From Amaricoccus sp. (GTDB taxonomy: Bacteria; Pseudomonadota; Alphaproteobacteria; Rhodobacterales; Rhodobacteraceae), in NCBI GenBank assembly GCA_965243535.1, contig CBDEVG010000045.1:294955-358954 (forward strand): DNA of 64,000 nt. Direction: 5' to 3'. Below the pieces are notes generated by a model. It was not told the DNA's origin. It saw nothing but the letters and a program-made list of their open reading frames with translations, and did no database searches. Positions 2,130-50,454 of the stretch are shown one piece after another; within the stretch, counting starts at the first letter, position 1, and every line of letters begins with the position of its first letter. The position numbers and the translations under genes were made by a program.

Positions 2130-2170
2130 CCGCGGACGCCCCTCTCCACCCTATTGAAAGGAAACCTGAA

Positions 2171-3433: not shown

Positions 3434-3463
3434 AATGACACCGATGTCATGACACCGGTGTCA
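3434..3463. promoter_or_regulatory. Two overlapping palindromic operator-like sites (ATGACACCGATGTCAT / ATGACACCGGTGTCAT) upstream of the LacI-family gene
   Basis: Read directly from the sequence. 3448-3463 is a perfect 16-bp palindrome and 3434-3449 is a 1-mismatch copy. Both sit 25-55 nt upstream of the GTG start at 3488, just before a GGGAGGGGGAG RBS. Confidence 0.5.
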
Positions 3464-3487
3464 TGACTCGGGAGGGGGAGTCCTCGG

Positions 3488-4570: not shown

Positions 4571-4590
4571 AACCAGGAGGAAAGACAAGC

Positions 4591-5856: not shown

Positions 5857-5937
5857 AGCCTAAGCCCCCCGCGGCGCCGCCGGCCCCTCGGCCCACGGCG
5901 CCGCGCCGTCCCAACGCAACATTCTCGGGAGGAAGGC

Positions 5938-7020: not shown

Positions 7021-7898
7021 TGGCCGCCGTCGAAGGAAAGAACCAGGGCCTCGACCGCGCTTGGCGCTACGGCCTGCTGCTGATCGGCGCGGCGATCTTC
7101 GTCGGACCGCTGCTCTTCATGGTGATGTCCTCGCTCAAGCCCGACGCCCAGCTCCTCGCCGACACGTCGAGCCTGCGCGCCTTCCTGCCGGTGGGCGACG
7201 TCTCCTTCACGAACTACGTCGGCGCCTTCGCCCGGGCGCCGGTGGCCACCTTCATCTTCAACTCGGTGCTGGTGACCGGGGTGACGGTGGCGCTCTCGCT
7301 CTTCATCTGCTCGATGGCGGCCTTCTCCTTCGTCTTCCTGAACTGGCGGGGGCGCGACGTGGCGCTCGCGGTCATCATCGCGACGCTGATCGTTCCCTTC
7401 GAGACCATCGCCATCCCGATGCTGATCGTGGTGAACAACCTGCCCTGGATCGGGCCCGAGGGGATCAGCGTCGGCTGGCTCAACAGCTACCGGGTGCAGA
7501 TCGTGCCCTTCATCTCGGACGGGCTGACGATCTTCCTCTTCGTGCAGTTCTTCAAGGACCTGCCGCGCGAGCTGATCGAGGCCTGCCGCGTCGAGGGCGC
7601 GTCCTGGTTCCAGATTTACTGGCGGGTGGTCATGCCGCTCTCCGGCCCGGTCATCGCCACCGCGGCGATCCTGAAGTTCCTCTACATGTACAACCAGTAC
7701 CTCTGGCCGCTCATGGTCACCCAGGCCGAAGAATACCGGCCGGTGATGGTCGGGCTCCAGTACTTCTTCCAGCTCAACACCCCCTGGGGCGAGCTGATGG
7801 CGTATCTCTCGGTCATCACCGTGCCCGTGCTCGCCTTCTACCTCGTGCTCCAGCGCGCCTTCATTTCCTCCATCGCTTCCACCGGCGTGAAAGGCTGA
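7020..7898 (+). CDS. Sugar ABC transporter permease (MalG/UgpE-like)
   Basis: ATG at 7020 overlaps the upstream TGA (TGATGG). EAA motif IEACRVEGASWFQIYWRVVMP. In frame with long ORF 5163..7898. Confidence 0.85.
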   Translation: MAAVEGKNQGLDRAWRYGLLLIGAAIFVGPLLFMVMSSLKPDAQLLADTSSLRAFLPVGDVSFTNYVGAFARAPVATFIFNSVLVTGVTVALSLFICSMAAFSFVFLNWRGRDVALAVIIATLIVPFETIAIPMLIVVNNLPWIGPEGISVGWLNSYRVQIVPFISDGLTIFLFVQFFKDLPRELIEACRVEGASWFQIYWRVVMPLSGPVIATAAILKFLYMYNQYLWPLMVTQAEEYRPVMVGLQYFFQLNTPWGELMAYLSVITVPVLAFYLVLQRAFISSIASTGVKG

Positions 7899-7900
7899 TC

Positions 7901-8860
7901 ATGACCATCGCACTCCCCGACAAGTGGATCTGGGACAGCTGGTACGTCCGCGACGGCGACCTCTGGCACGGGTTCTTCCTTCAGGCCGACAAGTCGCTCG
8001 GCGACCCCGACCTGCGCCACTTCAACGTGACCCAAGGGCACGCGACCAGCCGCGACCTCGTGAACTGGGAGCACAAGGGCACGACCTTCGCCCCGGCGCC
8101 CAGCCCCGCCTGGGACGACTACACCACTTGGACGGGTTCGGTGGTCAAGGGCGACGACGGGCTCTGGCACCTCTTCTACACCGGCACCTGCCGGGCCGAG
8201 GAGGGGATGAAGCAGCGGATCGGCCACGCCGTCTCGACCGACCTGCACGCCTGGACGCGGGTCGGCTCGGGCCTCGCGCTCGACATCGACGCGCGCTACG
8301 AGGAATACACCCCCGGCCACTGGCACGACCGCGCCTGCCGCGACCCCTGGGTCATGCGCGATCCCCGGGGCGGCTGGATGATGTTCTTCACCGCCCGCAT
8401 CCCCGGCACGGCGGAGCCGAACGCCGGCGGCGCCGTCGGCTTCGCCACCTCGCCGGACCTGATGACTTGGACGCTCCAGGATCCGGTCTATGCGGGCGGC
8501 GCCTTCGGCCAGCTCGAGGTGCCGCAGGTCTTCGAGATCGACGGCCGCTGGTGCTGCCTCTTCTGCACCGCGCCGGAGCACTACGCCGAGGCCTACCGCG
8601 CGACCTACCCGGGCGCGCCGGTGCGCGGCACGCACTACCTCGTCGCCGACGATCCCCGCGGCCCCTGGGAGGTGGCGCCGGGCGCGTTCCTCGACGGCGA
8701 TCCGGCGGTGAACCGGTATGCGGCGCGCATCGTCATGGCGGACGACGGGATGAAGCTCCTGGGCTTCCTGCACAATCCCGGGGGCGGCGCCTTCGTGGGC
8801 GAAATCTCCGATCCGGCGCCGGTCACGGCGCAGCCGGACGGCCTGCTGAAGCTCGGCTGA
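7901..8860 (+). CDS. Glycoside hydrolase, GH32-like (clan GH-J five-bladed beta-propeller, catalytic domain only)
   Basis: N-terminal WIWDSWYVRDGDLWHGFFLQ resembles the GH32 nucleophile box (WMNDPNG...WHLFYQ). An RDP motif (CRDPWVMRD) and an EVP/EC-like motif (LEVPQVFEI) are also present. Length 319 aa. It sits inside the transporter operon. Confidence 0.55.
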   Translation: MTIALPDKWIWDSWYVRDGDLWHGFFLQADKSLGDPDLRHFNVTQGHATSRDLVNWEHKGTTFAPAPSPAWDDYTTWTGSVVKGDDGLWHLFYTGTCRAEEGMKQRIGHAVSTDLHAWTRVGSGLALDIDARYEEYTPGHWHDRACRDPWVMRDPRGGWMMFFTARIPGTAEPNAGGAVGFATSPDLMTWTLQDPVYAGGAFGQLEVPQVFEIDGRWCCLFCTAPEHYAEAYRATYPGAPVRGTHYLVADDPRGPWEVAPGAFLDGDPAVNRYAARIVMADDGMKLLGFLHNPGGGAFVGEISDPAPVTAQPDGLLKLG

Positions 8861-8880
8861 GGACAAGGGGGGAAGCGACA

Positions 8881-9951
<1,071 letters not shown>

Positions 9952-9958
9952 TCCCGAA

Positions 9959-10002
9959 GGCGCGGCGGCCCGGGCCAGGGAAATCGCCCGGGCCGCCGCG
10001 CC
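9959..10002 (+). terminator. Putative intrinsic terminator hairpin after the ABC ATPase gene
   Basis: Perfect 15-bp inverted repeat GGCGCGGCGGCCCGG (9959-9973) / CCGGGCCGCCGCGCC (9988-10002) with a 14-nt loop, 8 nt after the stop at 9951. No U-tract, which is usual for high-GC genomes. Confidence 0.4.
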
Positions 10003-10239
10003 TCCCGAACCCTGCCCGGGCGGTCGCCCCCCCGGGCGCCGCGCCGCCGGGCCCTGGAGGGTGGGCGCCCGGCCGCCCGGCCCGCCGGGCGTGGGAAAAG
10101 AGGCCGGAGGCGTCGCGCCCGACGCCGCCCGCCGCGCTTCACCCCTTCTCAACCCACCTTTCCATCCGGTTGATGGAAATTTGAATACCAAGCAATATCA
10201 TTGCCTTGACCCCGATAACACGTGTGTTACGGGGCCCCT

Positions 10240-11346
10240 TCAGCCCAGGGGCCCGGTGGAATGCAGGCGGATCTTCAGCCCCCCATGGTCCACGGGCGGC
10301 CCCGGCGGCCCGAAGGGCAGGCCGGCGGCGCGGGCGAGGCCGGCGTCGCTGGTGACGATCCCGACCCGCCAGCCCTTGAACCGCTCCCGCAGGGTCTTGC
10401 CGAGCGCCCCGTAGAGGCCGAAGAGCAGCCGCTGCTCGCCGATCCGCGCCCCATAGGGGGGGTTCGCGATGACGAGGCCCGGCGGTCCCGGCGGCGGCTC
10501 CAGGTCGCTGACCGCCGTCCGGGCGAAGTCGCACCAGTCCGCGACTCCCGCCCGGGCCGCGTTCTCCGTCGCCATCCGCGCCGCGCCCTGGTCCCGGTCC
10601 GACCCCTGGAAGCGCGCCGCCGGGGTCCGCGGCGCCGCGGCCGCCTTCATCGCCGCCCAGGCCTCCGGGTCGAAGCCCGCGAACCCCTCGAAGGCGAAGC
10701 GCCGCCCCCGTCCGGGGGGGAGCCCCGCCGCGATCTCCGCCGCCTCGATGACGAAGGTCCCCGACCCGCACATCGGATCGACCACCGGCTCCGTCCCCCG
10801 GAACCCGCAGCCCCGCAGGAACAGCGCCGCCAGCGTCTCCCGCAGGGGGGCCTTGCCGACCGCGAGCTTGTGGCCCCGCTTGTGCAGCCCCTCCCCAGAG
10901 GTGTCGAGGCTGACCGTGCAGAGGTCGTCCTCGATCCGGACCAGGACCCGCACCCCCTCCGGCGCGATCCGGGCGTCCATCTCCTCCCGCAGCGCCGTCT
11001 CGATCCGCTGCGCCGCCGCGCCCGCGTGATAGATCCGCGACCGCCGGCAAACCGCCTCCACCCGCACGGCCGCGCCCCGGGGCAGGACCTCGGCCCAGGG
11101 AAACTTCCGCGCCCGCTTGTCGAGCTGGGCGAGGTGCATCGCCCGGAACGCCCCCAGCCGGACCAGCGCCCGGGTCGCGCCGCGCAGGGTCAGGTTCGCC
11201 CGCCAGACCTCGGGCCAGCCGCCGGCGGTCTCCACCCCGCCGGGAACCGCCCGCGGCGCGGCGAAGCCCGCCTCCGCCGCCTCGTCGCGCAGCAGGGGCT
11301 CCAGCCCCGGGGGGCAGACGAGGAAAATGTCGCGCGGCTCGGTCAT
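10240..11346 (-). CDS. THUMP-domain class I SAM-dependent RNA methyltransferase (RlmL / COG0116-like)
   Basis: 368 aa with MCGSGTFVIEAA (SAM motif I) and VIANPPYGARIG (N6/N2-MTase motif IV); N-terminal THUMP-like region. Confidence 0.75.
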   Translation of the reverse strand: MTEPRDIFLVCPPGLEPLLRDEAAEAGFAAPRAVPGGVETAGGWPEVWRANLTLRGATRALVRLGAFRAMHLAQLDKRARKFPWAEVLPRGAAVRVEAVCRRSRIYHAGAAAQRIETALREEMDARIAPEGVRVLVRIEDDLCTVSLDTSGEGLHKRGHKLAVGKAPLRETLAALFLRGCGFRGTEPVVDPMCGSGTFVIEAAEIAAGLPPGRGRRFAFEGFAGFDPEAWAAMKAAAAPRTPAARFQGSDRDQGAARMATENAARAGVADWCDFARTAVSDLEPPPGPPGLVIANPPYGARIGEQRLLFGLYGALGKTLRERFKGWRVGIVTSDAGLARAAGLPFGPPGPPVDHGGLKIRLHSTGPLG

Positions 11347-11468
11347 CCGCCCTCCTTATCCGGGCGGGGCCCCCGCGGCGAGAGGCTTGACGGCGGGCCC
11401 GCCCCGGGGCGAGATCCCGAGGCTGACCGGGACAGTCCCCCGCCTCCCCACCCGCCAAGGAGCGCGCC

Positions 11469-11909
11469 ATGGCCCTCTATCTCGAGGATCTGCACGAAGG
11501 CCAGACCTTCGCCAGCCGCGCGGAGGAGGTGACGACCGAGTCGATCAAGGCCTTCGCCGGTCAGTACGACCCCCAGCCCTTCCACCTCGACGAGGCGGCG
11601 GCGGAGGGGACCTTCTTCGGCGGCCTCGCCGCCAGCGGCTGGCAGACGGCCGCGGTCACCATGCGCCTGCTGACCGAGAGCGTCCCCCTCGCGGGCGGCG
11701 TCATCGGCGGCGGCGGGGAAATCCGCTGGCCCCAGGCGACCCGCCCGGGGGACCGGCTGACGGTGGAGAGCCGGGTGGAGAAGGTCGCCGCCTCCCGCTC
11801 CCGCTCCGACCGGGGAATGGTGACCCTGCGCAGCGAGACCCGCAACCAGCGCGGCGAGGTCGTGCAGATCCTGACCGCGACCCTCCTCGCCTTCCGCCGG
11901 CCGGAGTGA
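11469..11909 (+). CDS. MaoC-family (hot-dog fold) dehydratase
   Basis: 146 aa. LEDLHEGQTFASRAEEVTTESIKAFAGQYDPQPFHLDEAAA is a typical MaoC N-terminus. Confidence 0.8.
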   Translation: MALYLEDLHEGQTFASRAEEVTTESIKAFAGQYDPQPFHLDEAAAEGTFFGGLAASGWQTAAVTMRLLTESVPLAGGVIGGGGEIRWPQATRPGDRLTVESRVEKVAASRSRSDRGMVTLRSETRNQRGEVVQILTATLLAFRRPE

Positions 11910-11946
11910 CCTCCCGCCGGACAGAGCTCGAAGTCGGGCCTCAGGA

Positions 11947-12867
11947 TCAAGCCCTCGGGATCTGAGGGTCGGGGTCGGGCTTCAGGCCGCGCCGCCCGCC
12001 ACGGCGAGCGGCTGCGCCTCGTAGCCGAGCGCCCGGCAGATCTCGAAGCTCAGGTCGGGGTTGTTGAGGGGTGTAAACGTGCAGATGCTCCACCCCCTCG
12101 GCGATCAGCTCGCGCCACTGGTCGGCCGCCACCTCCACCGACAGGGCCCAGGCCGCCGCGTCGTCGGTCGCCTTGCCGAAGGCCTCGTGCAGCCGCTCGG
12201 GCACCCGCGCCTGGCAGCGCGCGGCGAAGTTCACCATGCGGGAGAACTTCTCGATCGGCAGCACCCCCGGCAGGATCGGGGCGGAGATGCCCGCCGCCGC
12301 GCAGGCGTCGCGGAACCGCAGGAAATCCCCGTTGTCGAAGAAGAACTGGGTGATCGCGTTCGAGGCGCCCGCGTCGATCTTGCGCTTGAGGTTGTCGATG
12401 TCCGCGGCGAGGCTCGCCGCCTCCGGATGCTTCTCGGGATAGGCCGCCACCGAGATCTCGAACTCGCCCGCCGCCAGCGCCGCCACCAGCTCCGCGGCCG
12501 AGCGGAAGCCTTCGGGATGGGGCTCGAACCGCGTCGCGCCCTGGGGCGGGTCGCCGCGCAGCGCCACGATCCGCCGGGCGCCCATCCGCCCGTAGCCCCG
12601 GGCCACCGCCAGGGTTTCCTCGCGGGTGGCGCCGACGCAGGTCAAGTGGCCCGCGACGTTCAGGTGCGCCCGCTCGATGATCGCCTGGATCGCCGCCGCC
12701 GTGCGGTCCCGGGTCGCCCCGCCCGCGCCGTAGGTGACGGAGACGAAGCGCGGCGCGAGGGGCGCGAGCCGCTCCACCGAGCGCCACAGCCGCAGGCCGC
12801 CTTCCGGCGTGCCGGGGGGAAAGAATTCGAAGGACAGACCCGGCAGGGCCTTGGACGTCGTGGTCAT
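11947..12867 (-). CDS. metF: 5,10-methylenetetrahydrofolate reductase MetF (apparent +1 frameshift near 3' end; see findings)
   Basis: Start ATG at 12867 (MTTTSKALPGLSFEFFPPGT...). Body matches MetF (NVAGHLTCVGATREE, AYPEKHPEA, ITQFFFD). The true C-terminus HFYTLNNPDLSFEICRALGYEAQPLAVAGGAA* lies in a different frame ending at 11982. As sequenced, the reading frame instead runs to 11947. Confidence 0.8.
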   Translation of the reverse strand: MTTTSKALPGLSFEFFPPGTPEGGLRLWRSVERLAPLAPRFVSVTYGAGGATRDRTAAAIQAIIERAHLNVAGHLTCVGATREETLAVARGYGRMGARRIVALRGDPPQGATRFEPHPEGFRSAAELVAALAAGEFEISVAAYPEKHPEAASLAADIDNLKRKIDAGASNAITQFFFDNGDFLRFRDACAAAGISAPILPGVLPIEKFSRMVNFAARCQARVPERLHEAFGKATDDAAAWALSVEVAADQWRELIAEGVEHLHVYTPQQPRPELRDLPGARLRGAAARRGGRRGLKPDPDPQIPRA

Positions 12868-12975
12868 GCGCACCGGTCCGAACCGACAATGAATGTTGCG
12901 CGACGTCATTACCTCTGGCCAGCGGCCCGGGCAACGGCTAACTGGCGAGGGTCCGTCCGAGCGAAGGGGGTTCCC

Positions 12976-13278
12976 ATGCCCGAGGTCCGCATCCTGTACT
13001 GGCGCGACATTCCCGCCCAGGTCATCGTCGGCGAGGGCCGCGCGGCCGCCAAGGCCCGGCTCTCCCACCGCTTCGAGGAAGCGATCGACGCCTGCGTCCT
13101 GCGCGGCCGCGACGCCGAGGCCTATCGCGCCGAATGGCGCCCGGGCGAGGCCTATGTGGTGGACGGCGACGCCGTCGAGATCGCGGCGGTCGAGGTCGAG
13201 CGCATCGAGTTCGCCTTTCCCGCCGAAGCCGTCCGCGCCCTCGTCGCTAACGAGGGCTGGGCCGAACCCCGCGCCTGA
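12976..13278 (+). CDS. Small conserved protein, probably PF13769-like ('virulence factor' family often adjacent to metF in alphaproteobacteria)
   Basis: ATG 12976 after GAAGGGGG. 100 aa, MPEVRILYWRDIPAQVIVGEGRAAAKARLSHRFEEAIDACVLRGRDAEAYRAEWRPGEAYVVDGD... Divergent from metF. Family assignment is from memory. Confidence 0.45.
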   Translation: MPEVRILYWRDIPAQVIVGEGRAAAKARLSHRFEEAIDACVLRGRDAEAYRAEWRPGEAYVVDGDAVEIAAVEVERIEFAFPAEAVRALVANEGWAEPRA

Positions 13279-13447
13279 GAGGCCATCCGAAACTTCGGAC
13301 GGGTCGACCCGACGGATCTTTTCCCGGAACGTCGATCCTTCCCGCCCATATCCCGATATTGACGGAAAGGCTCTCCTGCCGGATTCCCGAAACGCCCGCG
13401 TCGGCTCTCCGTCGCCGCATGTCCAGACAGTCTCTGAGGCCCGCCCG

Positions 13448-14100
13448 ATGCCCCGCTTCGCCCTGCTCTTCGACCTCGACGGCACGCTGATCGAAAGCGA
13501 CCACCTGCACCACGCCGCCTTTTCCCGGGTGATGGAGGAAATCGGTCTGCCGCCTCTGGGCTGGGAGGCCTATCGCACCGGCATCATGGGCAAGCCGAAC
13601 CTCCAGATCGCCCGGGACTGGTTTCCCGACCGCCCCGACGCGCTCGCCCTGGTCGACCGCAAGGAGGCGCTGTTCCGCGAGGCGCTCGCCGCCTCGGTCG
13701 CCCCGGTGGCGGGGCTTGCGCCCCTGCTCGACTGGGCGGAGGCCGCGGGCGCGGGGCTCGCCGTGGTGACCAACGCCCCCCGGGCCAACGCCGAGGCGAT
13801 GCTAGCGGCGGGCGGCCTCGCGGCGCGGCTGACCGAACTGGTGATCGGCGAGGAATGCGTCCGCTCCAAGCCCGACCCCCTGCCCTACCAGGAAGCGATG
13901 CGCCGGCTCGGCGTCACGCCCTCGCTCAGCTTCGCCTTCGAGGATTCCCCCTCCGGCCTGCGCGCCGCCCGCGCCTCGGGCGCCCATGTCTTCGGCCTGA
14001 CGAGCAGCCTGACCCCGGAAGAATTGCGGCAGGCGGGGGCCCACGAGGCCATCGCCGATTTCGCCGACCCCGCCCTCTGGACCGCGCTCGATGCGCTCCA
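13448..14100 (+). CDS. HAD-superfamily hydrolase (beta-phosphoglucomutase/CbbY-like); 3' end not defined by a stop codon
   Basis: MPRFALLFDLDGTLIESDHLHH (motif I DxDGT), VVTNAPRANAEA (motif II), SKPDPLPY and FEDSPSGLRAARASGAHVFGL (motifs III/IV). The protein-like sequence ends near ...FADPALWTALDAL (about 14095), but the frame stays open to 16567 through unrelated sequence. Confidence 0.65.
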
Positions 14101-16498
14101 CCTCGACCTCGGTCTCGCGCACGAGCTCCACGCGGAAGCGACGTACGCCGAGGCCCATCGCGCGTGGCACCTGCGACGCGGCGGACTGCGCATGCGCATG
14201 GAACACGGTGTTGCGACAGCCCACGTCGGCCTCGACGGGATGCTCCATGCCCGCGCGATCCTGGAGACCCACCACGTGCTTCTCGCACGGTCGACCACAC
14301 GTCTTGTGATCGCGCCCCTCCGACAGCAGCGCCGCGATCACGCAGTGCTCCATGTGGAAGAGCGGCATCGGGTGGTGCACCACGAGCTCGGCCCACGGAC
14401 CGAACGGCGAGTCGAGCAGCGCGAGCAGCTGCGTCGCGTCGAGATCGAACGAGGGCACGAACGCGTCGAGCCCCGCATCGAGGATCTCGCGCGCGCTGAT
14501 CCTGTTCGTCACGTTCAGCGAGAAATCGCCCACGAAACAAGGCGATCCAGAGGATCGTCCGGCGCGCGCACGGCCGACCTCGCGCAGGTGCCCGAGGCCT
14601 CGCACGAGCACCGCATCGGGCGCGAGCGAGTCGAGGTAGCCCTGGATCTTCTCTTCGCCCGGCTTGCGAATGCGCGGAGGGGCGACGCCCACGAACCTCG
14701 CGCCCTCGCTCCGCAGCGCGCGCACGGCCTGACCGGTGCCCGTGAGCTCGAGGAAGTCGAGGTAGACACCATCGGCACCTGCGGCGATCGCGGCGCGCGC
14801 CTGCGCGAGGTTGCGACAGAGCACGAAGAGGCCGCCCGAGGGTGCGTCGCGCTCGGGCGGCCGCGCCCGATCCACGAGCGCGCTCGCGGTGATGGACGAG
14901 GTCGCGATCGAACGCGACGCGGCCTTCGTGAGCGCGTCCGTCAGCGCGCGTCGCGCGCGGTGGAGAGACGAGACCGGCAGGAAGCGATCCTCGGGCAGAT
15001 CGATCGTCAGCGAGTCGAGCACGAACGTCGTCTCGCCGAGGCGCTCCATCGACTCGCGGATCGTCGTATCCGGCGTGGGCAGCTTCTTCGCGCGATCGAC
15101 GACCGCGTCGCCCACCACCTCGGCCACCAGGCCCCGCCGGCTCTCTGCGCGCAGCGTGAACGGCGCACCGGTCTCGCCAGAGATCGTGATGGCGATCGGC
15201 TCGCGGTGCGGATCGCGATCGAGCCGAGTGATCACGGCCTTCTCGAGCGAAGGGTCATCGTTCTTGAACACGCGACGTCCCACGAGCGACGCGTCGGGCG
15301 TGCGATCGGGGCCGAGCCAGACGCGCACCACGCTGCCCTCGCCGGCATGCTCGACGTCGCGCGCACCCCGCTCGCCACGCGCGCGCGTCTCCACGTTCCA
15401 CACGCGACCACCGAGCTCGCCCTCGCCGCCCAACGCGCCCTCGACGAGCAGACCATCGCCGCGCGCGACGCGCGTCTCGGTGTGCTCGATCACGATCATC
15501 GCGCGGCGCGCGTCGTGCTCGATCGCAGCGACGCGACCGACCACGAGGCCGCGGTGATCGCAGCCGCGCGCCTCGACCAGGCGCTGGTGATCGATGCCCG
15601 CGAGGAAGCCGGGCCCCGAGCCGCGCGAGTAGGTCTGGAGAGCCTCGGCTCGCAGCGCGCCGAGGGCGTCGTCGTCCATGCCGTCGATCGCGGCGCGGTA
15701 GAGGCGCGTGGTGCTCGCGACGTACGCCGGGCCTTTGAGGCGACCTTCGATCTTGAGCGAGCTGACGCCGACGTCGGCGAGCTCGGGCACCAGCGCGCTC
15801 GCCTCGAGATCCTCGGGCGACAGCAGGTACGCACGATCGTCGAGCGGGCGCCTCTCCCCATCGACGACGAGCGTGTACGGCAAGCGACAGGCCTGCGCGC
15901 ACGCGCCGCGGTTGGCGCTGCGGCCACCGATCGCCTCGCTCGTGAGGCACTGCCCGGAGTACGCGATGCAGAGCGCGCCGTGCACGAACACCTCGAGCTC
16001 CATGCCGCCTTCGCGCTCGCACGCACGCTGGATGGCCGTGATCTCGGTCAGACCCAGCTCGCGCGCGAGCACCACCCGCGAGACGCCGCGGTCCTTGGCG
16101 AAGAGCACGCTCTCGGCGTCGGTGCACGTCATCTGCGTCGAGGCGTGCAAGCGCAGCTCGGGCGCGATCGCGCGCGCCATCGCGAGCACGCCGAGATCCT
16201 GCACGATCACAGCGTCCACCCCTGCGCGCGCGCAAGCGCGGATCGCGGACTCCATCGCGCCGAGCTCGTGATCGAACACGAGCGTGTTGAGCGTGACGTA
16301 GCCCTTCACGCCGCGGGCATGGAGCGAGGCGAGGATCTCCGCGAGGCCCGCTTCGTCGAAGTTCGCGGCCCGTGCGCGCGCGTTGAAATGCGCGAGGCCG
16401 AAGTACACGGCGTCGGCGCCTGCGCGCATCGCGGCCTCGAGCGCCGCACGATCACCAGCGGGCGCGAGGACTTCGGGGCGCGTGCGGAGAGACTTCAT
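13802..16498 (-). CDS. Peptidase U32 family protein (collagenase-like; YhbU/YdcP family); last ~100 codons probably not genuine
   Basis: Start 16498 MKSLRTRPEVLAPAGDRAALEAAMRAGADAVYFGL... Conserved U32 core (ELEVFVHGALCIAYSGQCLTSEAIGGRSANRGACAQACRLPY) and C-terminal Cys module (HPMPLFHMEHCVIAALLSEGRDHKTCGRPCE). After ...VELVRETEVEVERIERG (about 14100) the frame runs antisense through the HAD gene to a stop at 13802. Confidence 0.7.
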   Translation of the reverse strand: MKSLRTRPEVLAPAGDRAALEAAMRAGADAVYFGLAHFNARARAANFDEAGLAEILASLHARGVKGYVTLNTLVFDHELGAMESAIRACARAGVDAVIVQDLGVLAMARAIAPELRLHASTQMTCTDAESVLFAKDRGVSRVVLARELGLTEITAIQRACEREGGMELEVFVHGALCIAYSGQCLTSEAIGGRSANRGACAQACRLPYTLVVDGERRPLDDRAYLLSPEDLEASALVPELADVGVSSLKIEGRLKGPAYVASTTRLYRAAIDGMDDDALGALRAEALQTYSRGSGPGFLAGIDHQRLVEARGCDHRGLVVGRVAAIEHDARRAMIVIEHTETRVARGDGLLVEGALGGEGELGGRVWNVETRARGERGARDVEHAGEGSVVRVWLGPDRTPDASLVGRRVFKNDDPSLEKAVITRLDRDPHREPIAITISGETGAPFTLRAESRRGLVAEVVGDAVVDRAKKLPTPDTTIRESMERLGETTFVLDSLTIDLPEDRFLPVSSLHRARRALTDALTKAASRSIATSSITASALVDRARPPERDAPSGGLFVLCRNLAQARAAIAAGADGVYLDFLELTGTGQAVRALRSEGARFVGVAPPRIRKPGEEKIQGYLDSLAPDAVLVRGLGHLREVGRARAGRSSGSPCFVGDFSLNVTNRISAREILDAGLDAFVPSFDLDATQLLALLDSPFGPWAELVVHHPMPLFHMEHCVIAALLSEGRDHKTCGRPCEKHVVGLQDRAGMEHPVEADVGCRNTVFHAHAQSAASQVPRAMGLGVRRFRVELVRETEVEVERIERGPEGGVGEIGDGLVGPRLPQFFRGQAARQAEDMGARGAGGAQAGGGILEGEAERGRDAEPAHRFLVGQGVGLGADAFLADHQFGQPRREAARR

Positions 16499-16523
16499 GG
16501 GGGCGGCGGGTCTACGGCGCGGC

Positions 16524-17453
16524 TCAGCCCGACGCCATCCCGGCGACCGTTCCGTCTTTGCGCTTGAGAGGGCGCAGATCGATGCGGCAGGTGGTCCCGC
16601 CGTGCTTGGGGATCGTCTTGGTGAGCTGGTAGCGAAGGCCGAACACCGACGAGATGCCGGCCTGGAACTGTCCGAAGATCCCGCAGTGCATCATCGACCA
16701 GCCCGGTGAGGTGAACCACGGGCAGGCCGTGCCCTCGATCATGCCGGTGTTCGCCGCGGCGTCGGCCTCGTGCCAGTGGTGCGGGTTCACGCGGAACACG
16801 TACTCGCTCATGCGCAGCACCTCGATCGCGCTCTCGGGGCGATCGGGCAGCGAGAACGTCGCCTTGGCGCGCTCGGCGCTCGCGCGACCGCCCTCGAAGC
16901 AGATCTGACCGAGCGCGGCGTTCGCGCCGACCGGCACGGCGCGCGGCAGCGTCTGCGTGAGCGCGATCAGGATCTCACCGAGGTGCGTCGTCACCTCGTG
17001 CCAGCGATCGATCACGGGCACGTCACGCAAGAGGCGCCACTCGAGCGCGAGGTGATCGCGCCGACGCGTGGGCGGCGCACCCGAGAGCCCACGGAACGGC
17101 CACGCACGACGCTTCGGATCACGCGCCACCATCGAGAGCGCACCGAGCACGGACGCCGCTCGTGCTTCATCCCCCGCGAGGCGCGGATGTCGCTCGACGA
17201 GTCGATCCCATCGCTTGCGGTACCCGATCGCCGCGGCCTTCGCGATCTCGTCCTCCGCTCGCTCGCGCGATCCGAGCACCGGCGTGAGCCCCTTGCGCAG
17301 CATCGCGTACCACGCGTGCATCCCGTCGGCGGCGAGCGTCCAGAGCAGCCACGGAGGCAGCTGCTCACGTCGATAGGCCTCGCGAACCACCCGCTCGAGC
17401 ATCGCGCGAGGATACCAGCGACTCGCGTCGAGGGCGTGGTAGCCCTCGGCCAT
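16524..17453 (-). CDS. Conserved hypothetical protein (about 309 aa)
   Basis: Protein-like part of ORF 16524..17951 begins at Met-167 (MAEGYHALDASRWYPRAMLERVVREAY...). The upstream serine-rich part is antisense junk. No family recognised (HHWHEADAAANTGMIEGTACPWF). Confidence 0.45.
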   Translation of the reverse strand: MAEGYHALDASRWYPRAMLERVVREAYRREQLPPWLLWTLAADGMHAWYAMLRKGLTPVLGSRERAEDEIAKAAAIGYRKRWDRLVERHPRLAGDEARAASVLGALSMVARDPKRRAWPFRGLSGAPPTRRRDHLALEWRLLRDVPVIDRWHEVTTHLGEILIALTQTLPRAVPVGANAALGQICFEGGRASAERAKATFSLPDRPESAIEVLRMSEYVFRVNPHHWHEADAAANTGMIEGTACPWFTSPGWSMMHCGIFGQFQAGISSVFGLRYQLTKTIPKHGGTTCRIDLRPLKRKDGTVAGMASG

Positions 17454-17733
17454 GTCCGCACCGACCGCCGATGAGCAGCTCGCTTCGTTGCGCGACGAGA
17501 TCGACACGATCGATCGCGTGCTGCTCGAGACGCTGGCGCGCCGACGCGGCGTCGTGTCGCGCATGCGCGACGCCAAGGCCGCCTTCGCCCTCCCCCGCAT
17601 CGATGCCGCGCGCGAGAGCGCCGTCCGCGGTCGCTGGCTGTCCGTCGCGCGAGAGAGGGAGCTGCCCGACGCACTCGCGCTCGCGCTGCTCGAGCTCGTG
17701 CTCGCCGACAGCCGAGCCCTCGTCGCGCGCTGA
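17452..17733 (+). CDS. Chorismate mutase-like protein (AroQ class)
   Basis: 93 aa. LASLRDEIDTIDRVLLETLARRRGVVSRMRDAKAAFALPRIDAARE matches the AroQ helix-1/2 pattern. Confidence 0.55.
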   Translation: MSAPTADEQLASLRDEIDTIDRVLLETLARRRGVVSRMRDAKAAFALPRIDAARESAVRGRWLSVARERELPDALALALLELVLADSRALVAR

Positions 17734-17763
17734 ACGAACGCAGGCGCTGCTATCGTACGCGCC

Positions 17764-18234
17764 ATGGCCCCCGCACCGTTCCGCACGGCGATGGACTCCG
17801 CGATCGCGAGCCAGACGCTCCAGAATTCCGAGGACCGCACGCACGCCGCGGCCGCGCACCTGCTCGGCGCCTTCGTGGGACTGATCACCGCAGGCGTCCT
17901 CTTCCCCGTGGCCGCGCCGACGCTCGTGCTCGTGATCAACTCGAGCCGCAACCCCTTCGTGCTCTTCCACGTGAACCAGGCTGCGTGGTTCCAGGCGCTG
18001 CTCAGCTCGATCCAGATCGTCGCGACGATCGTCTTCTTCGTCCTCTACTTCGTGACGTGCGGCGTGGGCGTGATCCTGCTCGTGCCGTTCATCCCGCTCT
18101 TCCTCGTCGGCTGGGCGCTCTCGGTGCTCTACCCCGCGTACATCGCGTACCAGGCGTACCAAGGTCAGTGGGCGCTCTACCCGTACCTCGGCAGCTGGGT
18201 GCTCGATCAGGAGTCGCCGCTCGTCGCCGATTGA
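17764..18234 (+). CDS. Small membrane protein, DUF4870-like
   Basis: 156 aa with 3-4 TM segments; AAAAHLLGAFVGLITAGVLFPV...HVNQAAWFQALLS pattern resembles the DUF4870/TM2 family. Confidence 0.5.
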   Translation: MAPAPFRTAMDSAIASQTLQNSEDRTHAAAAHLLGAFVGLITAGVLFPVAAPTLVLVINSSRNPFVLFHVNQAAWFQALLSSIQIVATIVFFVLYFVTCGVGVILLVPFIPLFLVGWALSVLYPAYIAYQAYQGQWALYPYLGSWVLDQESPLVAD

Positions 18235-18245
18235 TCACGCGAGGA

Positions 18246-18881
18246 TCAACAGCCGTCGTCGTTCAGACCGTCGCAGTCGTCGTCGACACCGTTGCCGCAG
18301 ATCTCGGCCACGTCGCACGTCGAGACCGTGCACAGACCGCCCGAGCAGATCTGGCCTGCTGCGCAGTCGCCGTCCGTCGCGCACGCCATGCCACAGCGCT
18401 GGCCGCTCTGCGTGCGATCGTCGGGAGCGCAGTCGATCACGTCGGGGGAGCCGTCGACATCACGGTCGCTGCCTCCGGGTGCGCCCACCACGGTGCCGCC
18501 CTCGAGGCGCACGGCGATCTCGAACGTGTCGGCCGTGTCGCTCAGGCCCTCGAGGAAGAGCGTGTCGATGGTGGCGCCCGGCAGCGTCGCGCCGAACGAG
18601 CCGTCAGCCGCCGTGTAGATCGCGACGCTCGCGCTCGACATCGGCGCCGAGGGATTCGTCACGCGCAGGGCGCGACCGCCCGGTCGCACCGCGCCCGCGC
18701 GGCCCGAGAGCCGCACCTCGCTCGCGCTCGCCTGCACCAGGCTCATGCGCGCCACGTCGAGCGAAGGCGGATCCGGGATCGGCGTCGCCAGACACGCCGA
18801 GAGACCCCACGAGACGACCAGCGCCGTGAGCGAGCGCCGAAGGACGCGGGAGACGGAGCGGTCGTTCGTGGGTCGGTGCAT
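18246..18881 (-). CDS. Cys-rich lipoprotein with MopE-type putative metal-binding motif (CxNGVDDDCDG)
   Basis: Signal/lipobox LVVSWGLSAC. The C-terminus carries CGNGVDDDCDGLNDDGC and other Cys pairs. Paralogous to the next gene. Confidence 0.6.
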   Translation of the reverse strand: MHRPTNDRSVSRVLRRSLTALVVSWGLSACLATPIPDPPSLDVARMSLVQASASEVRLSGRAGAVRPGGRALRVTNPSAPMSSASVAIYTAADGSFGATLPGATIDTLFLEGLSDTADTFEIAVRLEGGTVVGAPGGSDRDVDGSPDVIDCAPDDRTQSGQRCGMACATDGDCAAGQICSGGLCTVSTCDVAEICGNGVDDDCDGLNDDGC

Positions 18882-18933
18882 CGAGGCCTCTCAGGCTGAC
18901 AGATCACGCGGGATCAGAGGAGCTGCGTCGGGG

Positions 18934-19752
18934 TCATGCGGCCGTGCACAGGCCCGACACGCACACCTGACCCGCGGCGCAGTCGGCATCGGTCGCGCAC
19001 GCGTCCTCGCAGCCGTCGTCGACGAGGCCGTCGCAGTCGTCGTCGACGGCGTTGCCGCACACCTCGGCGCCGCACATCGGATCGCCGGAGCACACACCCG
19101 ACACGCACACCTGACCCGCGGCGCAGTCGTCGTCCGCGCTGCAGACGAGGCCACGGCCTTCGCAACGTCCGCCGACGCACGCGCTGCCCGCGCCGCAGTC
19201 GGCATCGGTCGCGCACTCGAGCTCGGAGGTCACGCACGCGCCCATCGCGCACACCTGTCCCGCCGCGCAGTCCGCGTCGAGCGTGCACTCGCTCGTGCAG
19301 TCTTCGTCGACCACACCGTCGCAGTCGTCGTCGACGCCGTTGCTGCACGCCTCGGCGCTCGGCTCACAGCCGCTCGAAGCGCGACATGCGCCCGCATCGC
19401 AGCGCGAGCCGGCGGGGCAGTCCGCATCGGCCGCGCACGCGAGCGAGCCAGGAAGGTCCGCGCACGCGCCCGCGACGCAGAGCCGCATCGGCCCGCACGC
19501 GCTGTCGGTCTCGCAGGCCTCGCCGCGTCCCGCCCAGCACGAGCCATCGACGCACACGGCCTCGCTCGGACAGTCGGCGTCCGACGCACACGCCGCGAGG
19601 CACCGGTCCTCGACGCAGCTCGCGCCCGCCGCGCAGAGCTCGTCTTCGGTGCACGCCGTGACCGCGTAGCTCGATCGACCGAGAGGCTCGGCCTGACATG
19701 CAGCGAGCGAGGCGAGGGATGCAGCGGCGAAGAGCACGTGACCGAGACGCAT
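18934..19752 (-). CDS. Cys-rich repeat lipoprotein (multiple DADCPAG..C modules plus two MopE-type CxNxVDDDCDG motifs)
   Basis: Start MRLGHVLFAAASLASLAACQ (lipobox). 272 aa with about 40 Cys in repeated modules. The DNA-level repeats encoding the DDDCDG motif are also seen at 18250-18305 and 19320-19357. Confidence 0.6.
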   Translation of the reverse strand: MRLGHVLFAAASLASLAACQAEPLGRSSYAVTACTEDELCAAGASCVEDRCLAACASDADCPSEAVCVDGSCWAGRGEACETDSACGPMRLCVAGACADLPGSLACAADADCPAGSRCDAGACRASSGCEPSAEACSNGVDDDCDGVVDEDCTSECTLDADCAAGQVCAMGACVTSELECATDADCGAGSACVGGRCEGRGLVCSADDDCAAGQVCVSGVCSGDPMCGAEVCGNAVDDDCDGLVDDGCEDACATDADCAAGQVCVSGLCTAA

Positions 19753-19865
19753 GAGGAACCTCCGAGAAGGGGATGCGCTCCTTCCGCAAGCAGGGTGCCA
19801 GCGAGGCCACGCGATGAATCAGCGCGATCCTCGACATTCATGGGCGTCTAACTGTCTCGCGACAT

Positions 19866-21182
19866 TTGTTATTGTCTCACTGCGACATGGCCCACGGCGC
19901 CCGGATCGACCGCTATGCGATGCACACCGTGCTCGGGCCCGACGTAGGGCGCGCGAGCGATCGGCTCGGCGGCCCCGACGTCATCGTGAAGCGCGCGAAG
20001 GAGGGCCCGGCGCGCGACGCGCTCGAGCGCGAGGTGAGGCTCGCGATCGATCTCGAAGGACACGCCGCCGCGCGTGCCGTTCACGCGGTCGCGTCGCACG
20101 AAGACGGATCGCTCACGGTCGTGCTCGAGGACGTGATCGGCCGACCGCTCGACCTCGTGTCGCCTGCGCCGCGCGAAGCACACCGACTCGCGGTCGAGCT
20201 CCTGCGCGCGTTGCTCTCTCTCCACGACCGCGGTCTCGTGCACGGCGACCTCAAGCCTGCGCACGTGCTCGTCGACGAGGACGGTGCGATCCGCCTGCTC
20301 GACCTCGGCCTCGTGACGCCCCTGGGCGCGCCGGCACGCGGCGGCACGCACGGCTTCCTCGCCCCCGAGCTCCTCCTCGGCGCGGCGACGAGCGCGCAGA
20401 CGGAGCTCCACGCGTTCGGCCGCACGCTCGTGGCGGCCAGCATGCGAGGGCTCGACGCTGGGCTCGACCGGCTGATCGATGCGTGCGTCGCGATCGATGC
20501 ACGCGAACGACCGCCTTCGATCGAAGCCGCGCTCGCGATGCTCGACGCGCTGCCCCGTCACCGTTCGGTCTCGCGAGACGATCCGCTCGCGAGCGTGCTC
20601 GTCGAGATCGATCGTGCGCTCGAGGCGGACGACGGACGCACCCTGACGATCGCGCTCGCACGCGGCGGAGGTCGCACGCACCTCACGCGCACGGCCGTCC
20701 ATCGCTCCTCGGCGCGGCCCGCGCGATCACTCGTGGCGGTCGGAGGCGGAGCGTTGGTGGGCGGGCTCGTCGCCGCAGCACCGCTCTTCGAGACACCGCA
20801 CACCGAGGATCGCGAGCGTCTCGTCGAGCGCACGCTCTCACGCGCGATCGACGCTGGCGTTCGCTGGCTCGTCGACGGAGGGGGACGACGCGAGCCCCGA
20901 CCTCCGCGCCGATCTCGTGACAGCGGCGCGCGCATCGTTCGCTCTCGGCCGAGGCCTCCTCGTGATCGTCGGTGTCGACGACGCCCTCCACCGCGCGCTC
21001 GCGGACGTGAGCCCCTCGCTCGCGACGCTCAGCGTGCCCGAGATCGACGACGCCGAGCTTCATCGCGCGCTCGAAGGCGCCGACGTCGCGCTCGACGCGA
21101 GCGGGCGCGCCGAGCTCCTCGCGCGGACCGAGCGACGACGAGGCGTGGTGCACCGCGCGATCCGGAGGCTGGCGCGAGGTGA
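19866..21182 (+). CDS. Ser/Thr protein kinase domain ORF (probably the N-terminal part of a frameshifted STK/sigma-54 activator fusion)
   Basis: Hanks kinase motifs HGDLKPAHVLV (subdomain VIb), DLGL (VII) and GTHGFLAPE (VIII). Protein-like sequence runs to about 20882, and the remaining ORF tail is poly-Arg junk. An alternative start is MAHGARIDRY at 19887. Confidence 0.7.
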   Translation: MLLSHCDMAHGARIDRYAMHTVLGPDVGRASDRLGGPDVIVKRAKEGPARDALEREVRLAIDLEGHAAARAVHAVASHEDGSLTVVLEDVIGRPLDLVSPAPREAHRLAVELLRALLSLHDRGLVHGDLKPAHVLVDEDGAIRLLDLGLVTPLGAPARGGTHGFLAPELLLGAATSAQTELHAFGRTLVAASMRGLDAGLDRLIDACVAIDARERPPSIEAALAMLDALPRHRSVSRDDPLASVLVEIDRALEADDGRTLTIALARGGGRTHLTRTAVHRSSARPARSLVAVGGGALVGGLVAAAPLFETPHTEDRERLVERTLSRAIDAGVRWLVDGGGRREPRPPRRSRDSGARIVRSRPRPPRDRRCRRRPPPRARGREPLARDAQRARDRRRRASSRARRRRRRARRERARRAPRADRATTRRGAPRDPEAGAR

Positions 21183-25496: not shown

Positions 25497-25652
25497 GCTC
25501 GGGCGTGTGGAGTCGTGGCCGATGCGACCATGGTGCACGATCGCGCCGTCGCTCGACCACCCTGCCTTGACGCAGCGCGTCGGTCGGAGAATCCCGCGGC
25601 GCTTCGTTGGTCGTGTGACGGGAACGTGTCAAGATCGTGTCTGCCCCGCGCC

Positions 25653-30735: not shown

Positions 30736-30899
30736 CCCATCGGTTCCTTCCCAGGCCCTTCACAGCCCCGAGGGAATGTCGAGGGTCCTCGCTCGTTTTC
30801 GGCTCGTCACGGAGGAGAGAGCGGCGGTGACAACACCGCGCGGGTCTGATTGGATCCGCGCCGCTCGTCGCCTCGTTCACACGAGGCAGAGGGAGGATC

Positions 30900-38644: not shown

Positions 38645-38651
38645 TCTCCCG

Positions 38652-49435: not shown

Positions 49436-50454
49436 TGCGTCACCCGCTCGTGCAGCTGCTCCTCGTCCGCCTGCGCACCTTTCAGCGCGAGCCCGAGGCG
49501 CTGTTCTGGACGTTCGGCTTTCCGCTCGTGCTGACGCTCGTGCTCGGCATCGCGTTCCGTCCCGTCGAGGGCGAGCCGATCCCGATCGTGGTGATCGAGG
49601 GGCCCGACGCAGACGAGATCACCGCACGGCTCGAGCGCGACGAGGATCTCGCGATCAGGCGCGCGACGGATGCGAGCGAGGCGCGACGCCTGTTCGTCCG
49701 GGGCAGCGCGCTCGCGATCGTGGAGGGATCCACGGAACGCCCCGTTCTTCATACCGATCCGACTCGCCCCGAGTCTCGGCTGGCGCACGCGCGGGTCGAA
49801 CGCGCCCTGATCGATGCGCCGCTCGCGATCGAGGACGCGCCGATGCGCGAGCCGGGTACGCGATACGTCGACTTCGTGGTGCCGGGGCTCGTGGGCATGA
49901 ACGTGATGACGGTGTGCCTCTGGGGCATCGGATGGAACGTCGTCGAGTCGCGATCGAAGAAGCTCCTGCGCCGCCTCGCGGTCACGCCGATGAAGAGACG
50001 CCACTACCTCGGCGCGTTCCTCCTCGCGCACGTGGTGCTGGTGCTCGTGACGCTCGCGGTGGTGCTGGGCTTCGCGTGGGCGAGCTTCGGCGTCGGCGTC
50101 GAGGGGCGCGCCATCGACTACGTCGTCATCGTCGTGCTCGGCTGTCTGGCGTTCTCCGCGATGGGCGTGCTCCTCGCGAGCCGCACCGACAACGTCGAGG
50201 TGCTCTCGGGCATGGTGAACGCAGCGTCGCTCCTCCAGCTCGTGGCGAGCGGCGTCTTCTTCTCCACGTCGCGCTTCCCCGAGTGGGCGCTCGTGGTGCT
50301 GCGGGGCCTGCCGCTCACGGCGCTCGTCGACGCGCTCCGAGCGATCGCGCTCGAGGGACGCGGGCTGACGGAGCTGCCCGTGGAGGTCGCGGTGCTCACG
50401 GCGTGGACCGTCCTGGCCGGTGCGATCGGGGTACGGATCTTCCGCTGGAGCTGA
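49432..50454 (+). CDS. ABC-2 type transporter permease
   Basis: ATG overlaps the ATPase stop (ATGATG). Six TM segments and an ABC-2 family profile. Confidence 0.75.
   Translation: MMRHPLVQLLLVRLRTFQREPEALFWTFGFPLVLTLVLGIAFRPVEGEPIPIVVIEGPDADEITARLERDEDLAIRRATDASEARRLFVRGSALAIVEGSTERPVLHTDPTRPESRLAHARVERALIDAPLAIEDAPMREPGTRYVDFVVPGLVGMNVMTVCLWGIGWNVVESRSKKLLRRLAVTPMKRRHYLGAFLLAHVVLVLVTLAVVLGFAWASFGVGVEGRAIDYVVIVVLGCLAFSAMGVLLASRTDNVEVLSGMVNAASLLQLVASGVFFSTSRFPEWALVVLRGLPLTALVDALRAIALEGRGLTELPVEVAVLTAWTVLAGAIGVRIFRWS

Follow-up and report, generated by a model that had tools for sequence, protein, structure and literature searches.

A gene for a HAD-IA hydrolase on the plus strand and a gene for a U32-family peptidase on the minus strand converge at about 14.09 kb of the window, the whole stretch of 64,000 nucleotides that was analysed. 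Both genes are cut there. The HAD gene is the last of a series that runs through sugar ABC permeases, an AP_endonuc_2 TIM-barrel protein, LacI, an SBP, two permeases, GH32, an ABC ATPase, RlmL, MaoC, metF, and a PF13769 protein. On the other side, the U32 gene is followed by a 289-aa gene, chorismate mutase, MamF_MmsF, DUF7107/MopE-type lipoproteins, an STK-sigma54 enhancer-binding protein (EBP), DUF1688, and onward. I analysed the two sides, the join, and the contig on which the join is deposited.

Table 1. Coordinates of the segments, genes, frames and sequence features in the window.
Feature	Position	Strand	Remarks
Alphaproteobacterial (Rhodobacterales, Amaricoccus-like) chromosomal segment	1..14091		By identity, tetranucleotides, Pfam and synteny; extends beyond the left end of the window
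+1 frameshift in metF (MTHFR), G-run	12066..12073	-	GAGGGGTG in the window vs GAGGGTG in nine relatives
Plus-frame ORF	12893..16567	+	HAD-like part from Met 13448; antisense of U32 onward to 16567
Inverted repeat, left arm, 22 nt	13188..13209	+	Inside the PF13769 gene; encodes VEVERIE
HAD-IA hydrolase gene, truncated	13448..14091	+	215 of 222 codons, no stop; Pfam HAD_2, P0121
Minus-frame ORF	16498..13802	-	Antisense of HAD past the junction, to 13802
Junction (zone of ambiguous parentage)	14084..14091		GCGCTCGA
U32-family peptidase gene (Peptidase_U32 + DUF3656), truncated	14084..16498	-	About 804-806 of 842 codons, no stop
Myxobacterial (Sandaracinaceae/Polyangiales-like) chromosomal segment	14084..64000		By identity, synteny and tetranucleotides
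Inverted repeat, right arm, 21/22 complementary	14087..14108	+	Starts inside the junction; U32 strand encodes VEVERI
+1 frameshift at a G5 run, gene for the STK-sigma54 EBP	20877..20883	+	In a native myxobacterial gene
tRNA-Thr	49781..49869		Only tRNA of the window

Two truncated genes and their read-through frames

The HAD_2 domain of the hydrolase is complete (profile positions 1-177 of 178, E=1.5e-25), and the DxDGT-type motif FDLDGTL lies at residues 8-14. The protein is 97% identical to a 222-aa homologue (P0121) up to residue 215-216, and it lacks the last seven residues (RLKARAA) and the stop codon; the C-terminus of its relatives reads WTALDRLKARAA and then stops. In the U32 gene, Peptidase_U32 and DUF3656 domains were both found by Pfam. 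Its product is 98% identical to a homologue (P0001) over residues 1-804/805 and diverges afterwards, with 36-38 of the 842 residues and the stop codon missing. The homologues of this peptidase are 803-851 aa long.

An earlier sequence-only reading of the window had described the two genes as convergent, without stop codons and shorn of their C-termini. The intact relatives bear this out, while the loss from the HAD protein is small, only seven residues. It had also traced both frames as antisense through the opposite gene, which the ORF coordinates confirm. In either ORF, the sequence is protein-like only as far as the junction, and neither frame has a homologue or a domain beyond it, as judged by Pfam and homologue comparison. 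Homologous proteins that extend through the region, which had been named as evidence against a join, were not seen; all HAD homologues stop 7 residues beyond the break, and all U32 homologues 36-38 residues beyond it. The frames run on past the junction because stop codons are few in DNA of 70% GC, and both read-through ORFs are artefacts of the missing stops.

Two parental genomes and the site of the break

About 20 independent alphaproteobacterial metagenome contigs from different samples share 96-99% identity with the left side of the window, and in all of them this similarity ends exactly at position 14091. One of these contigs (L002) is 97.7% identical to window positions 3458-14091 and runs 10 kb beyond the break, a stretch without a match in the window. 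Two others (L055 and L056) are 98.6% identical to the first 8.5 kb (from position 1). The contigs that reach beyond the break have the last seven HAD codons, which complete a hydrolase of 222 aa, and then downstream alphaproteobacterial genes; in most of them the gene after HAD is DUF167, and in two an extra HSDR_N-like gene comes first. The contigs with the exact PF13769 and PBP proteins belong to other strains, with a DNA identity of 94-99%. The genes of the alphaproteobacterial segment are ordinary housekeeping chromosome genes. As a separate observation, two loci from MAGs labelled Chloroflexia and Solirubrobacterales (L015 and L028) are alphaproteobacterial-like throughout the 10-13 kb examined, and no similar breakpoint was seen in them.

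On the right side, a contig of a myxobacterial MAG (L001) is 96.6% identical to window positions 14084-19355. It carries an uncut U32 peptidase gene of 842 aa, followed by more myxobacterial genes, and runs 10 kb beyond the break with sequence that has no match in the window. Altogether, three myxobacterial assemblies have an uncut U32 gene (842-846 aa) with myxobacterial genes after it, and the right segment is syntenic with two myxobacterial-side loci (L038 and L039). The myxobacterial continuation was also found on a separate low-coverage contig (L052 from ERZ26052449, with the name tag '2x'), which ends 173 nt from the break.

Thus, the relatives of each side, at 96-99% nucleotide identity, are collinear past the break with the gene intact, and the window combines DNA from two genomes. 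The two sides align to the genomes of different organisms. The sequence-only reading had called the upstream DNA alphaproteobacterial and the downstream DNA myxobacterial; the relatives refine the former to Rhodobacterales (Amaricoccus-like), and homologues and synteny refine the latter to Sandaracinaceae/Polyangiales-like. The separate homology comparison of each half, which it had proposed, thereby placed the halves in different phyla. Its further proposal that the cut in both convergent genes marks an artificial or recombinational junction is supported by the same intact collinear relatives.

The break is a shift in oligonucleotide and codon usage. GC content does not change with it: values lie at 0.70-0.72 left and right of the junction, and the profile is flat at about 0.71. 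In an unbiased scan, the maximum of the tetranucleotide Jensen-Shannon (JS) change-point lies at position 14080 with a score of 2183, while the next-best splits score 299 and 251. Shuffling the window in 500-bp blocks (500 shuffles) gave null scores of 228 +/- 56, none of them above 501, while the observed value was 2144 (z of about 34). The compositional discontinuity therefore sits at the breakpoint, as the sequence-only reading had located it at about 14.1 kb, and the tetranucleotide profiling that it had suggested puts the change-point far above every block shuffle. The left tetranucleotide profile correlates at 0.93-0.98 with independent Rhodobacterales loci and at 0.75-0.81 with myxobacterial loci; the right profile correlates with myxobacterial loci at 0.98-0.99. 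CCGG is 3.4 times commoner left of the junction, while CGCG (2.1 times) and CACG (3.5 times) are commoner right of it. The preferred codons on the left and the right are GCC versus GCG for alanine, ACC versus ACG for threonine, and CTG versus CTC for leucine, and the phase of third-position GC flips at about 14100. For both parents, the parental sequence that is absent from the window has the tetranucleotide signature of its own side. Flat GC content may hide a chimera, and tetranucleotide and codon statistics expose it at single-gene resolution.

The exact site was read from a three-way base-level alignment of the window with L002 and L001. The left parent matches through position 14091, and the match to the right parent begins at 14089, or at 14084 if a mismatch at 14088 is allowed, so that the parental overlap at the join is only 3-8 bases. 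Parentage is ambiguous in the zone 14084-14091, and the switch from alphaproteobacterial to myxobacterial sequence takes place within these eight bases. The sequence-only reading was right about the location, while its exact site (14095-14110) gives way to this zone in the alignments with the relatives.

The deposited contig and the sequence around the junction

From Met24 to the stop codon at 13802, the minus-strand read-through ORF of the window matches at 100% identity a deposited protein of 875 aa (P0242), which is recorded on one contig of 376,386 bp. Exact proteins of both sides of the window are recorded on the same contig. The deposited contig thus contains the join. The chimeric ORF occurs on this contig only, among about 15 billion proteins; its 90% cluster has three further members, all with a normal C-terminus. 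The alphaproteobacterial DNA extends over at least about 16.8 kb of the contig. No cluster member of the alphaproteobacterial continuation (DUF167, ChpT, Gmk, and YicC) or of the myxobacterial continuation (a 347-aa protein, an F420 oxidoreductase, a beta-lactamase, and DUF1275) was found on the contig. Each reference therefore continues with sequence absent from the contig, with the proteins judged by cluster membership, and a simple insertion with its flanks kept was not seen. A junction-spanning 41-mer was absent from genome_contigs and metagenome_contigs; a conserved myxobacterial 41-mer right of the junction was likewise absent from metagenome_contigs, and these absences are uninformative about the junction.

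No integrase, transposase, conjugation, or phage gene was found among all genes of positions 1-14091 and 14084-25500. No direct repeat flanks the junction, and no tRNA lies at it. The microhomology GCGCTCGA is imperfect, with 7-8 of 8 positions shared. The left arm of the inverted repeat holds the sole exact match of at least 18 nt that is common to the alphaproteobacterial and myxobacterial relative loci, and this shared 20-nt identity of the two genomes adjoins the break; of the 49,893 22-mers on the right side, only two match the left part at one mismatch or fewer. Neither a simple de Bruijn join nor a homologous or HFIR crossover at this 20-mer was accepted as the origin of the junction, since each would set the reverse complement of 13208-14091 beside the myxobacterial DNA.

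Each half carries one +1 frameshift in a G-homopolymer. In metF, for which a residue-level check was made, the frame downstream of the shift is perfectly conserved. The occurrence of the same type of G-run frameshift in a native myxobacterial gene argues for sequencing error rather than decay. The two frameshifts suggest an error-prone long-read consensus and, with it, an assembly based on long reads.

Interpretation of the junction

The junction is very probably an inter-genome mis-join in a metagenome assembly and no biological feature. DNA of two unrelated organisms in the same metagenome, a Rhodobacterales alphaproteobacterium and a Sandaracinaceae-like myxobacterium, would have been joined either in a chimeric DNA molecule or read from library preparation or sequencing, or by the assembler, which would have linked them wrongly where they are similar over a short stretch. 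The HAD and U32 genes would be merely cut, with nothing functional at the junction. This reading is favoured because only one contig shows the junction, no cluster member of either continuation is recorded on that contig, mobility features are lacking, the alphaproteobacterial composition is unameliorated, the alphaproteobacterial genes are housekeeping genes, and homopolymer errors are present. Published chimera rates set the prior. Chimeric reads make up 1.7-8.2% of ONT libraries, interspecies chimeras included (PMC10025935), and benchmarks give 2.6-22 chimeric contigs per genome (PMC11261854).

The case resembles an interspecies-translocation misassembly in that the flanks belong to different phyla, the references are collinear past the break, the signature switches abruptly, genes are cut in the middle of the ORF, the junction is seen once, and indels are of the long-read type. 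It differs in that a standard de Bruijn k-mer join needs a longer overlap than the 3-8 bp seen here, and that the 20-mer beside the join is wrongly oriented for a simple graph error. The direct join with 0-10 nt of microhomology and nothing intervening is rather like that of in-vitro chimeras (ONT ligation/follow-on, or MDA/PCR template-switch), which occur at per-cent frequency in long-read libraries (PMC10025935), except that no adapter remnant lies at the junction of the window. A restriction-ligation join of the TaqI type (TCGA) would require a T at 14088 in the myxobacterial parent.

The short overlap is a point against a chimera, and the imperfect 8-nt microhomology with the adjacent shared 20-mer also fits a sequence-guided biological recombination. 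Is the junction then a real and very recent transfer between phyla? Microhomology-mediated illegitimate recombination would have attached a piece of Rhodobacterales chromosome, at least 17 kb long, to a Sandaracinaceae-like chromosome, destroying the 3′ ends of the HAD and U32 genes and deleting at least 4 kb of myxobacterial DNA. A short microhomology is typical of illegitimate recombination, the length of the contig with genes of both organisms fits, and the metF frameshift could represent the early decay of foreign DNA. This transfer is nevertheless unlikely. The frameshift of the same type in the native myxobacterial gene points to sequencing error, the 20-mer is wrongly oriented for a homologous crossover, and the junction is found on a single contig, from which the myxobacterial flank past the break is absent by cluster membership. 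Moreover, the alphaproteobacterial DNA is 97-99% identical to that of free-living relatives, its composition is wholly unameliorated, and it carries housekeeping cargo without mobility functions.

The join shares with the border of a genomic island an abrupt compositional and phylogenetic break and a short microhomology. Unlike such a border, it has no integrase, transposase, tRNA target or attachment site, or direct repeats, its cargo is core housekeeping chromosome without amelioration, no cluster member of the recipient flank is recorded on the contig, and the window contains this one border and no second. Myxobacteria are predators, and the uptake of prey DNA is conceivable. That a predatory Sandaracinaceae-like myxobacterium very recently took in chromosomal DNA (at least 17 kb) from a Rhodobacterales alphaproteobacterium living alongside it, by microhomology-mediated illegitimate recombination at GCGCTCGA, beside the 20-nt identity, and was caught before amelioration or purging, is if anything more doubtful still than a transfer as such. 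If true, it would show a predatory bacterium just after it acquired DNA from another phylum.

Another route considered was a fold-back chimera within the alphaproteobacterial DNA, in which 14091 is joined to the reverse strand at 13209 and the assembly graph then turns into the myxobacterial DNA. It would account for the coincidence of the 20-mer, but two artefacts would have to occur together, and the C that the window has at 14099 contradicts it. It is highly improbable that the join arose when the window was cut, from two contigs concatenated without a spacer and with the join in no public record. The missing junction 41-mer and the lack of a match for the window's proteins in the gene-position index would fit this, but the cross-junction ORF is itself deposited and exact proteins from both sides are on one contig. 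Overlapping convergent genes or a natural fusion, with the 1039-aa and 898-aa ORFs as real proteins, would explain the long stop-free frames on both strands but can be practically dismissed, as the lengths of all homologues, the lack of homologues or domains past the junction in either frame, and the switch of third-position GC phase contradict it.

With a mis-join as the preferred reading, the junction is probably unimportant as biology, since the genes would be cut by a technical join. The meaning lies rather in data quality: a 376-kb contig that is public at both NCBI and ENA seems to unite DNA from two phyla. Such a chimera would mislead the taxonomy of the contig or bin, screens for horizontal gene transfer, pangenome analyses, and gene catalogues, for which the 875-aa read-through 'U32 peptidase' has already been deposited.

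Convergent genes at the break

The sequence-only reading proposed that an artificial or recombinational junction near 14.1 kb cuts a HAD hydrolase gene and a U32 peptidase gene. This was supported, since relatives of each side carry the intact gene past the break, which lies at 14084-14091. It was found that the two genes do converge and that both frames overrun the break and are degenerate beyond it, as listed in the table. In the + frame, the HAD is complete from its Met (opening MPRFALLFDLDGTL), and the frame turns into Arg/His/Glu-rich junk past ...ADFADPALWTALD; compared with the sequence of the alphaproteobacterial relatives, seven codons and the stop codon are lacking. The U32 frame turns to non-protein-like sequence past ...VRETEVEVERI. 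The codon position with the highest GC content changes phase at about 14100. HAD homologues are 216-234 aa and U32 homologues 803-851 aa in length, and none of them stretches through the junk tails.

Features at the break between the two parts (window positions)
Feature	Position	Strand	Remark
+ strand ORF	12893..16567	+	holds HAD-type hydrolase from Met 13448
strand ORF	16498..13802	-	U32 peptidase frame (Peptidase_U32 + DUF3656)
22-nt inverted repeat	13188-13209 and 14087-14108		21/22 complementary, one arm at junction; contains the shared 20-mer

Relatives of the two sides

The left side had been read as alphaproteobacterial, and this holds: it shares 97.7% identity across 10.6 kb with the locus of an alphaproteobacterial relative (L002), and its homologues are those of Rhodobacterales. 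The named HAD homologues are from Amaricoccus and Rhodovulum, the locus is found in GTDB genomes of Amaricoccus, Rhodovulum, Roseivivax, and other Rhodobacterales, and the permease at the left end has its nearest named relatives in Pseudorhodobacter, Celeribacter, and Paracoccus. An intact HAD of 222 aa (P0121) shares 97% identity with the HAD of the window as far as residue 215-216. It is carried on nine contigs from different samples, all of which align up to exactly 14091 and none further. In those reaching past the HAD gene, DUF167 comes next, and the longer ones go on to DUF3553, a ChpT-like HPTransfase, a hexapeptide transferase, Gmk, and YicC. Nowhere in the window is there a homologue of DUF167 or ChpT. 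For related strains, 12 further contigs were compared (L040-L049, L053, L054), and the match ends at 14091 wherever they reach that far. Leftward, two loci (L055, L056) share 98.6% identity with the first 8.5 kb, and their synteny carries on beyond the window start.

Some variation was seen among the alphaproteobacterial strains. A spacer of about 150 bp between PF13769 and HAD (13285-13433) is missing in one strain group (L040-L049 compared), and in two strains (L043, L044) HAD and DUF167 are separated by an additional HSDR_N-like gene. The Rhodobacterales-type PF13769-HAD-DUF167 arrangement was also found in a MAG labelled Chloroflexia (L015; 10.6-23.3 kb of a 1.15-Mb contig) and at a contig end of a MAG labelled Solirubrobacterales (L028). 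Their tetranucleotide profiles correlate with the left part at r 0.94-0.97, except for one terminal sub-window at 0.89, and both may be additional cases of chimeric or misbinned contigs in MAG sets from long reads.

The right side was likewise confirmed as myxobacterial by its DNA identity to L001, a locus of a myxobacterial relative (96.6%; window 14084-19355 against L001 5273-1), and by synteny with two Sandaracinaceae assemblies. The closest named U32 homologues are from Sandaracinaceae, Polyangiaceae, Minicystis, Chondromyces, and Labilithrix. The top match, an intact U32 of 842 aa (P0001; MAG GCA_017303575.1), shares 98% identity with the window ORF across residues 1-804/805 and has no similarity to it after that point. 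L001 extends 10 kb past the break with a 347-aa gene, an F420-type oxidoreductase, beta-lactamase, DUF1275, MMPL, and others, which are absent from the window. Both Sandaracinaceae assemblies have an intact 846-aa U32 (78% amino acid identity), followed downstream by myxobacterial genes, and match the upstream synteny of the window (a 289-aa gene, chorismate mutase, MamF_MmsF, a DUF7107 lipoprotein, a 348-aa gene, and STK-sigma54 EBP). A separate 6.6-kb contig (L052; ENA ERZ26052449, ctg38125_2x_l) carries the myxobacterial genes due after U32. It shares 96.5% identity with L001 and stops 173 nt before reaching the break. The tag '2x' in its name suggests that coverage was low, and it may be the true continuation, which the same dataset or one like it kept as a contig of its own.

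Sequence around the break

A compositional break near 14.1 kb had been claimed. GC content stays level at 0.70-0.72 on both sides, so that base composition does not mark the break; what changes is the usage of oligonucleotides and codons. Over the whole window, an unbiased Jensen-Shannon change-point scan peaked at 14080 (score 2183), while the best further splits within each part scored just 299 and 251. In the block-shuffle control (500 shuffles, 500-bp blocks), the score was 228 ± 56 (maximum 501), against 2144 observed. Tetranucleotide profiles of 4-kb windows correlate at r 0.96-0.99 with the side they come from, against 0.70-0.84 with the opposite side. The stretches past the break that the window is missing follow the same division: that of L001 correlates with the right side (r 0.989) and that of L002 with the left (r 0.978). 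CCGG is 3.4 times commoner on the left, while CGCG (2.1 times) and CACG (3.5 times) are commoner on the right. The left part uses GCC for Ala, ACC for Thr, and CTG for Leu, where the right part uses GCG, ACG, and CTC. A second shift lies in the myxobacterial part (about 28600 and 30800-38700), where GC falls to 0.63-0.67 and two very long ORFs (30831-33101 and 33305-38644) are low in second-position GC; the shift probably reflects no more than the usual differences between genes.

Across the junction, the window reads ...CTCTGGACC GCGCTCGA TGCGCTCCACCTCGACC..., the alphaproteobacterial relatives ...GGACCGCGCTCGA up to the break and CCGCCTCAAGGCCCGGGCCGCGTGA after it, and the myxobacterial relative ...GCTGCGCACGA and then TGCGCTCGACC.... 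The zone of ambiguous parentage is CGA (3 nt) and at most GCGCTCGA (8 nt, one mismatch in L001), and no extra bases or adapter remnant lie between the two parts. The 20-mer GGTCGAGGTCGAGCGCATCG is the sole exact match of at least 18 nt on either strand between the alphaproteobacterial (20.7 kb) and myxobacterial (15.4 kb) relative loci. The myxobacterial copy adjoins the break (14089-14108), the alphaproteobacterial copy lies 884 nt upstream in the opposite orientation (13188-13207), and both encode VEVERI. In the window's own copy, a C at 14099 breaks the identity. Of the 49,893 right-side 22-mers, only 2 occur in the left part with at most one mismatch, one being the junction 22-mer, and the chance of an inverted-repeat arm falling at the junction is about 0.001-0.003. 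The 20-mer and the 7-8/8 microhomology suggest that the join was sequence-guided, not a random blunt-end ligation. A simple k-mer graph join and a homologous crossover at the 20-mer were both rejected for the wrong orientation, and I found no single-step mechanism employing it.

Origin of the join

The 90% cluster of P0001 contains a deposited 875-aa protein (P0242; NCBI, ENA) from one contig of 376,386 bp, while the remaining three members have a normal C-terminus. From Met24 to the stop at 13802, and with the junk tail, P0242 is 100% identical to the read-through ORF of the window; it consists of U32 residues 24-804 and a 94-aa antisense-HAD tail. Seven exact window proteins, five from the alphaproteobacterial side (LacI, permease, RlmL, MaoC, PF13769) and two from the myxobacterial side (MamF and a 211-aa lipoprotein), are all on a 376,386-bp contig. 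Thus, the window is a faithful piece of the deposited contig, and a join created when the window was cut is ruled out. The cluster of a periplasmic binding protein, encoded in relatives about 2 kb to the left of where the window starts, also has a member on this contig, so the alphaproteobacterial block is at least about 16.8 kb. The contig has no member of the alphaproteobacterial continuation clusters DUF167 and Gmk (complete cluster lists) or ChpT and YicC (among the matches listed), and none of the myxobacterial continuation (347-aa protein, F420 oxidoreductase, beta-lactamase, DUF1275; complete lists).

Each part has one frameshift. The metF gene of the alphaproteobacterial part (- strand, about 11985-12867) has a +1 frameshift in a G-run at 12066-12073 (GAGGGGTG versus GAGGGTG in nine relatives). 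Read in the shifted frame, the final 28 codons show 100% conservation, and the frameshift has the appearance of a homopolymer error in the consensus. In the myxobacterial STK-sigma54 EBP gene (+ strand, about 19965-24258), ortholog residues 2-317 align in frame 3 and 320-1430 in frame 1, a +1 G-run frameshift with the switch at the G5 run 20879-20883 (site 20877-20883). The other indels against close relatives are all intergenic, in-frame, or mutually compensating. Being of one kind and present in each half, the two frameshifts have the look of homopolymer-length errors such as a long-read consensus of modest depth would contain.

In the window, two genomes from different phyla are joined head-on within two convergent genes, making it a hybrid. 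For each half, near-identical organisms whose loci are intact occur independently in many metagenomes. The junction would be a technical chimera of the two genomes. I consider this by far the likeliest explanation, because the join was seen on a single contig that lacks both continuations, the alphaproteobacterial part is unameliorated housekeeping chromosome, mobility features are lacking, and the consensus errors are of long-read type. Such artefacts are common, since chimeric reads, interspecies ones among them, make up 1.7-8.2% of ONT libraries (PMC10025935) and assembler benchmarks gave 2.6-22 chimeric contigs per genome (PMC11261854). A genuine and very recent transfer between phyla through illegitimate recombination is improbable: no direct repeats flank the junction, no integrase or transposase is among the genes of 1-25.5 kb, every one of which was accounted for, and the sole tRNA of the window is at 49.8 kb. 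With a technical chimera preferred, the junction is most likely not a biological feature and its biological interest is low. The finding is useful for flagging a public contig and the junk-tailed P0242, which is deposited as a predicted protein and clustered at 90% with genuine U32 peptidases.
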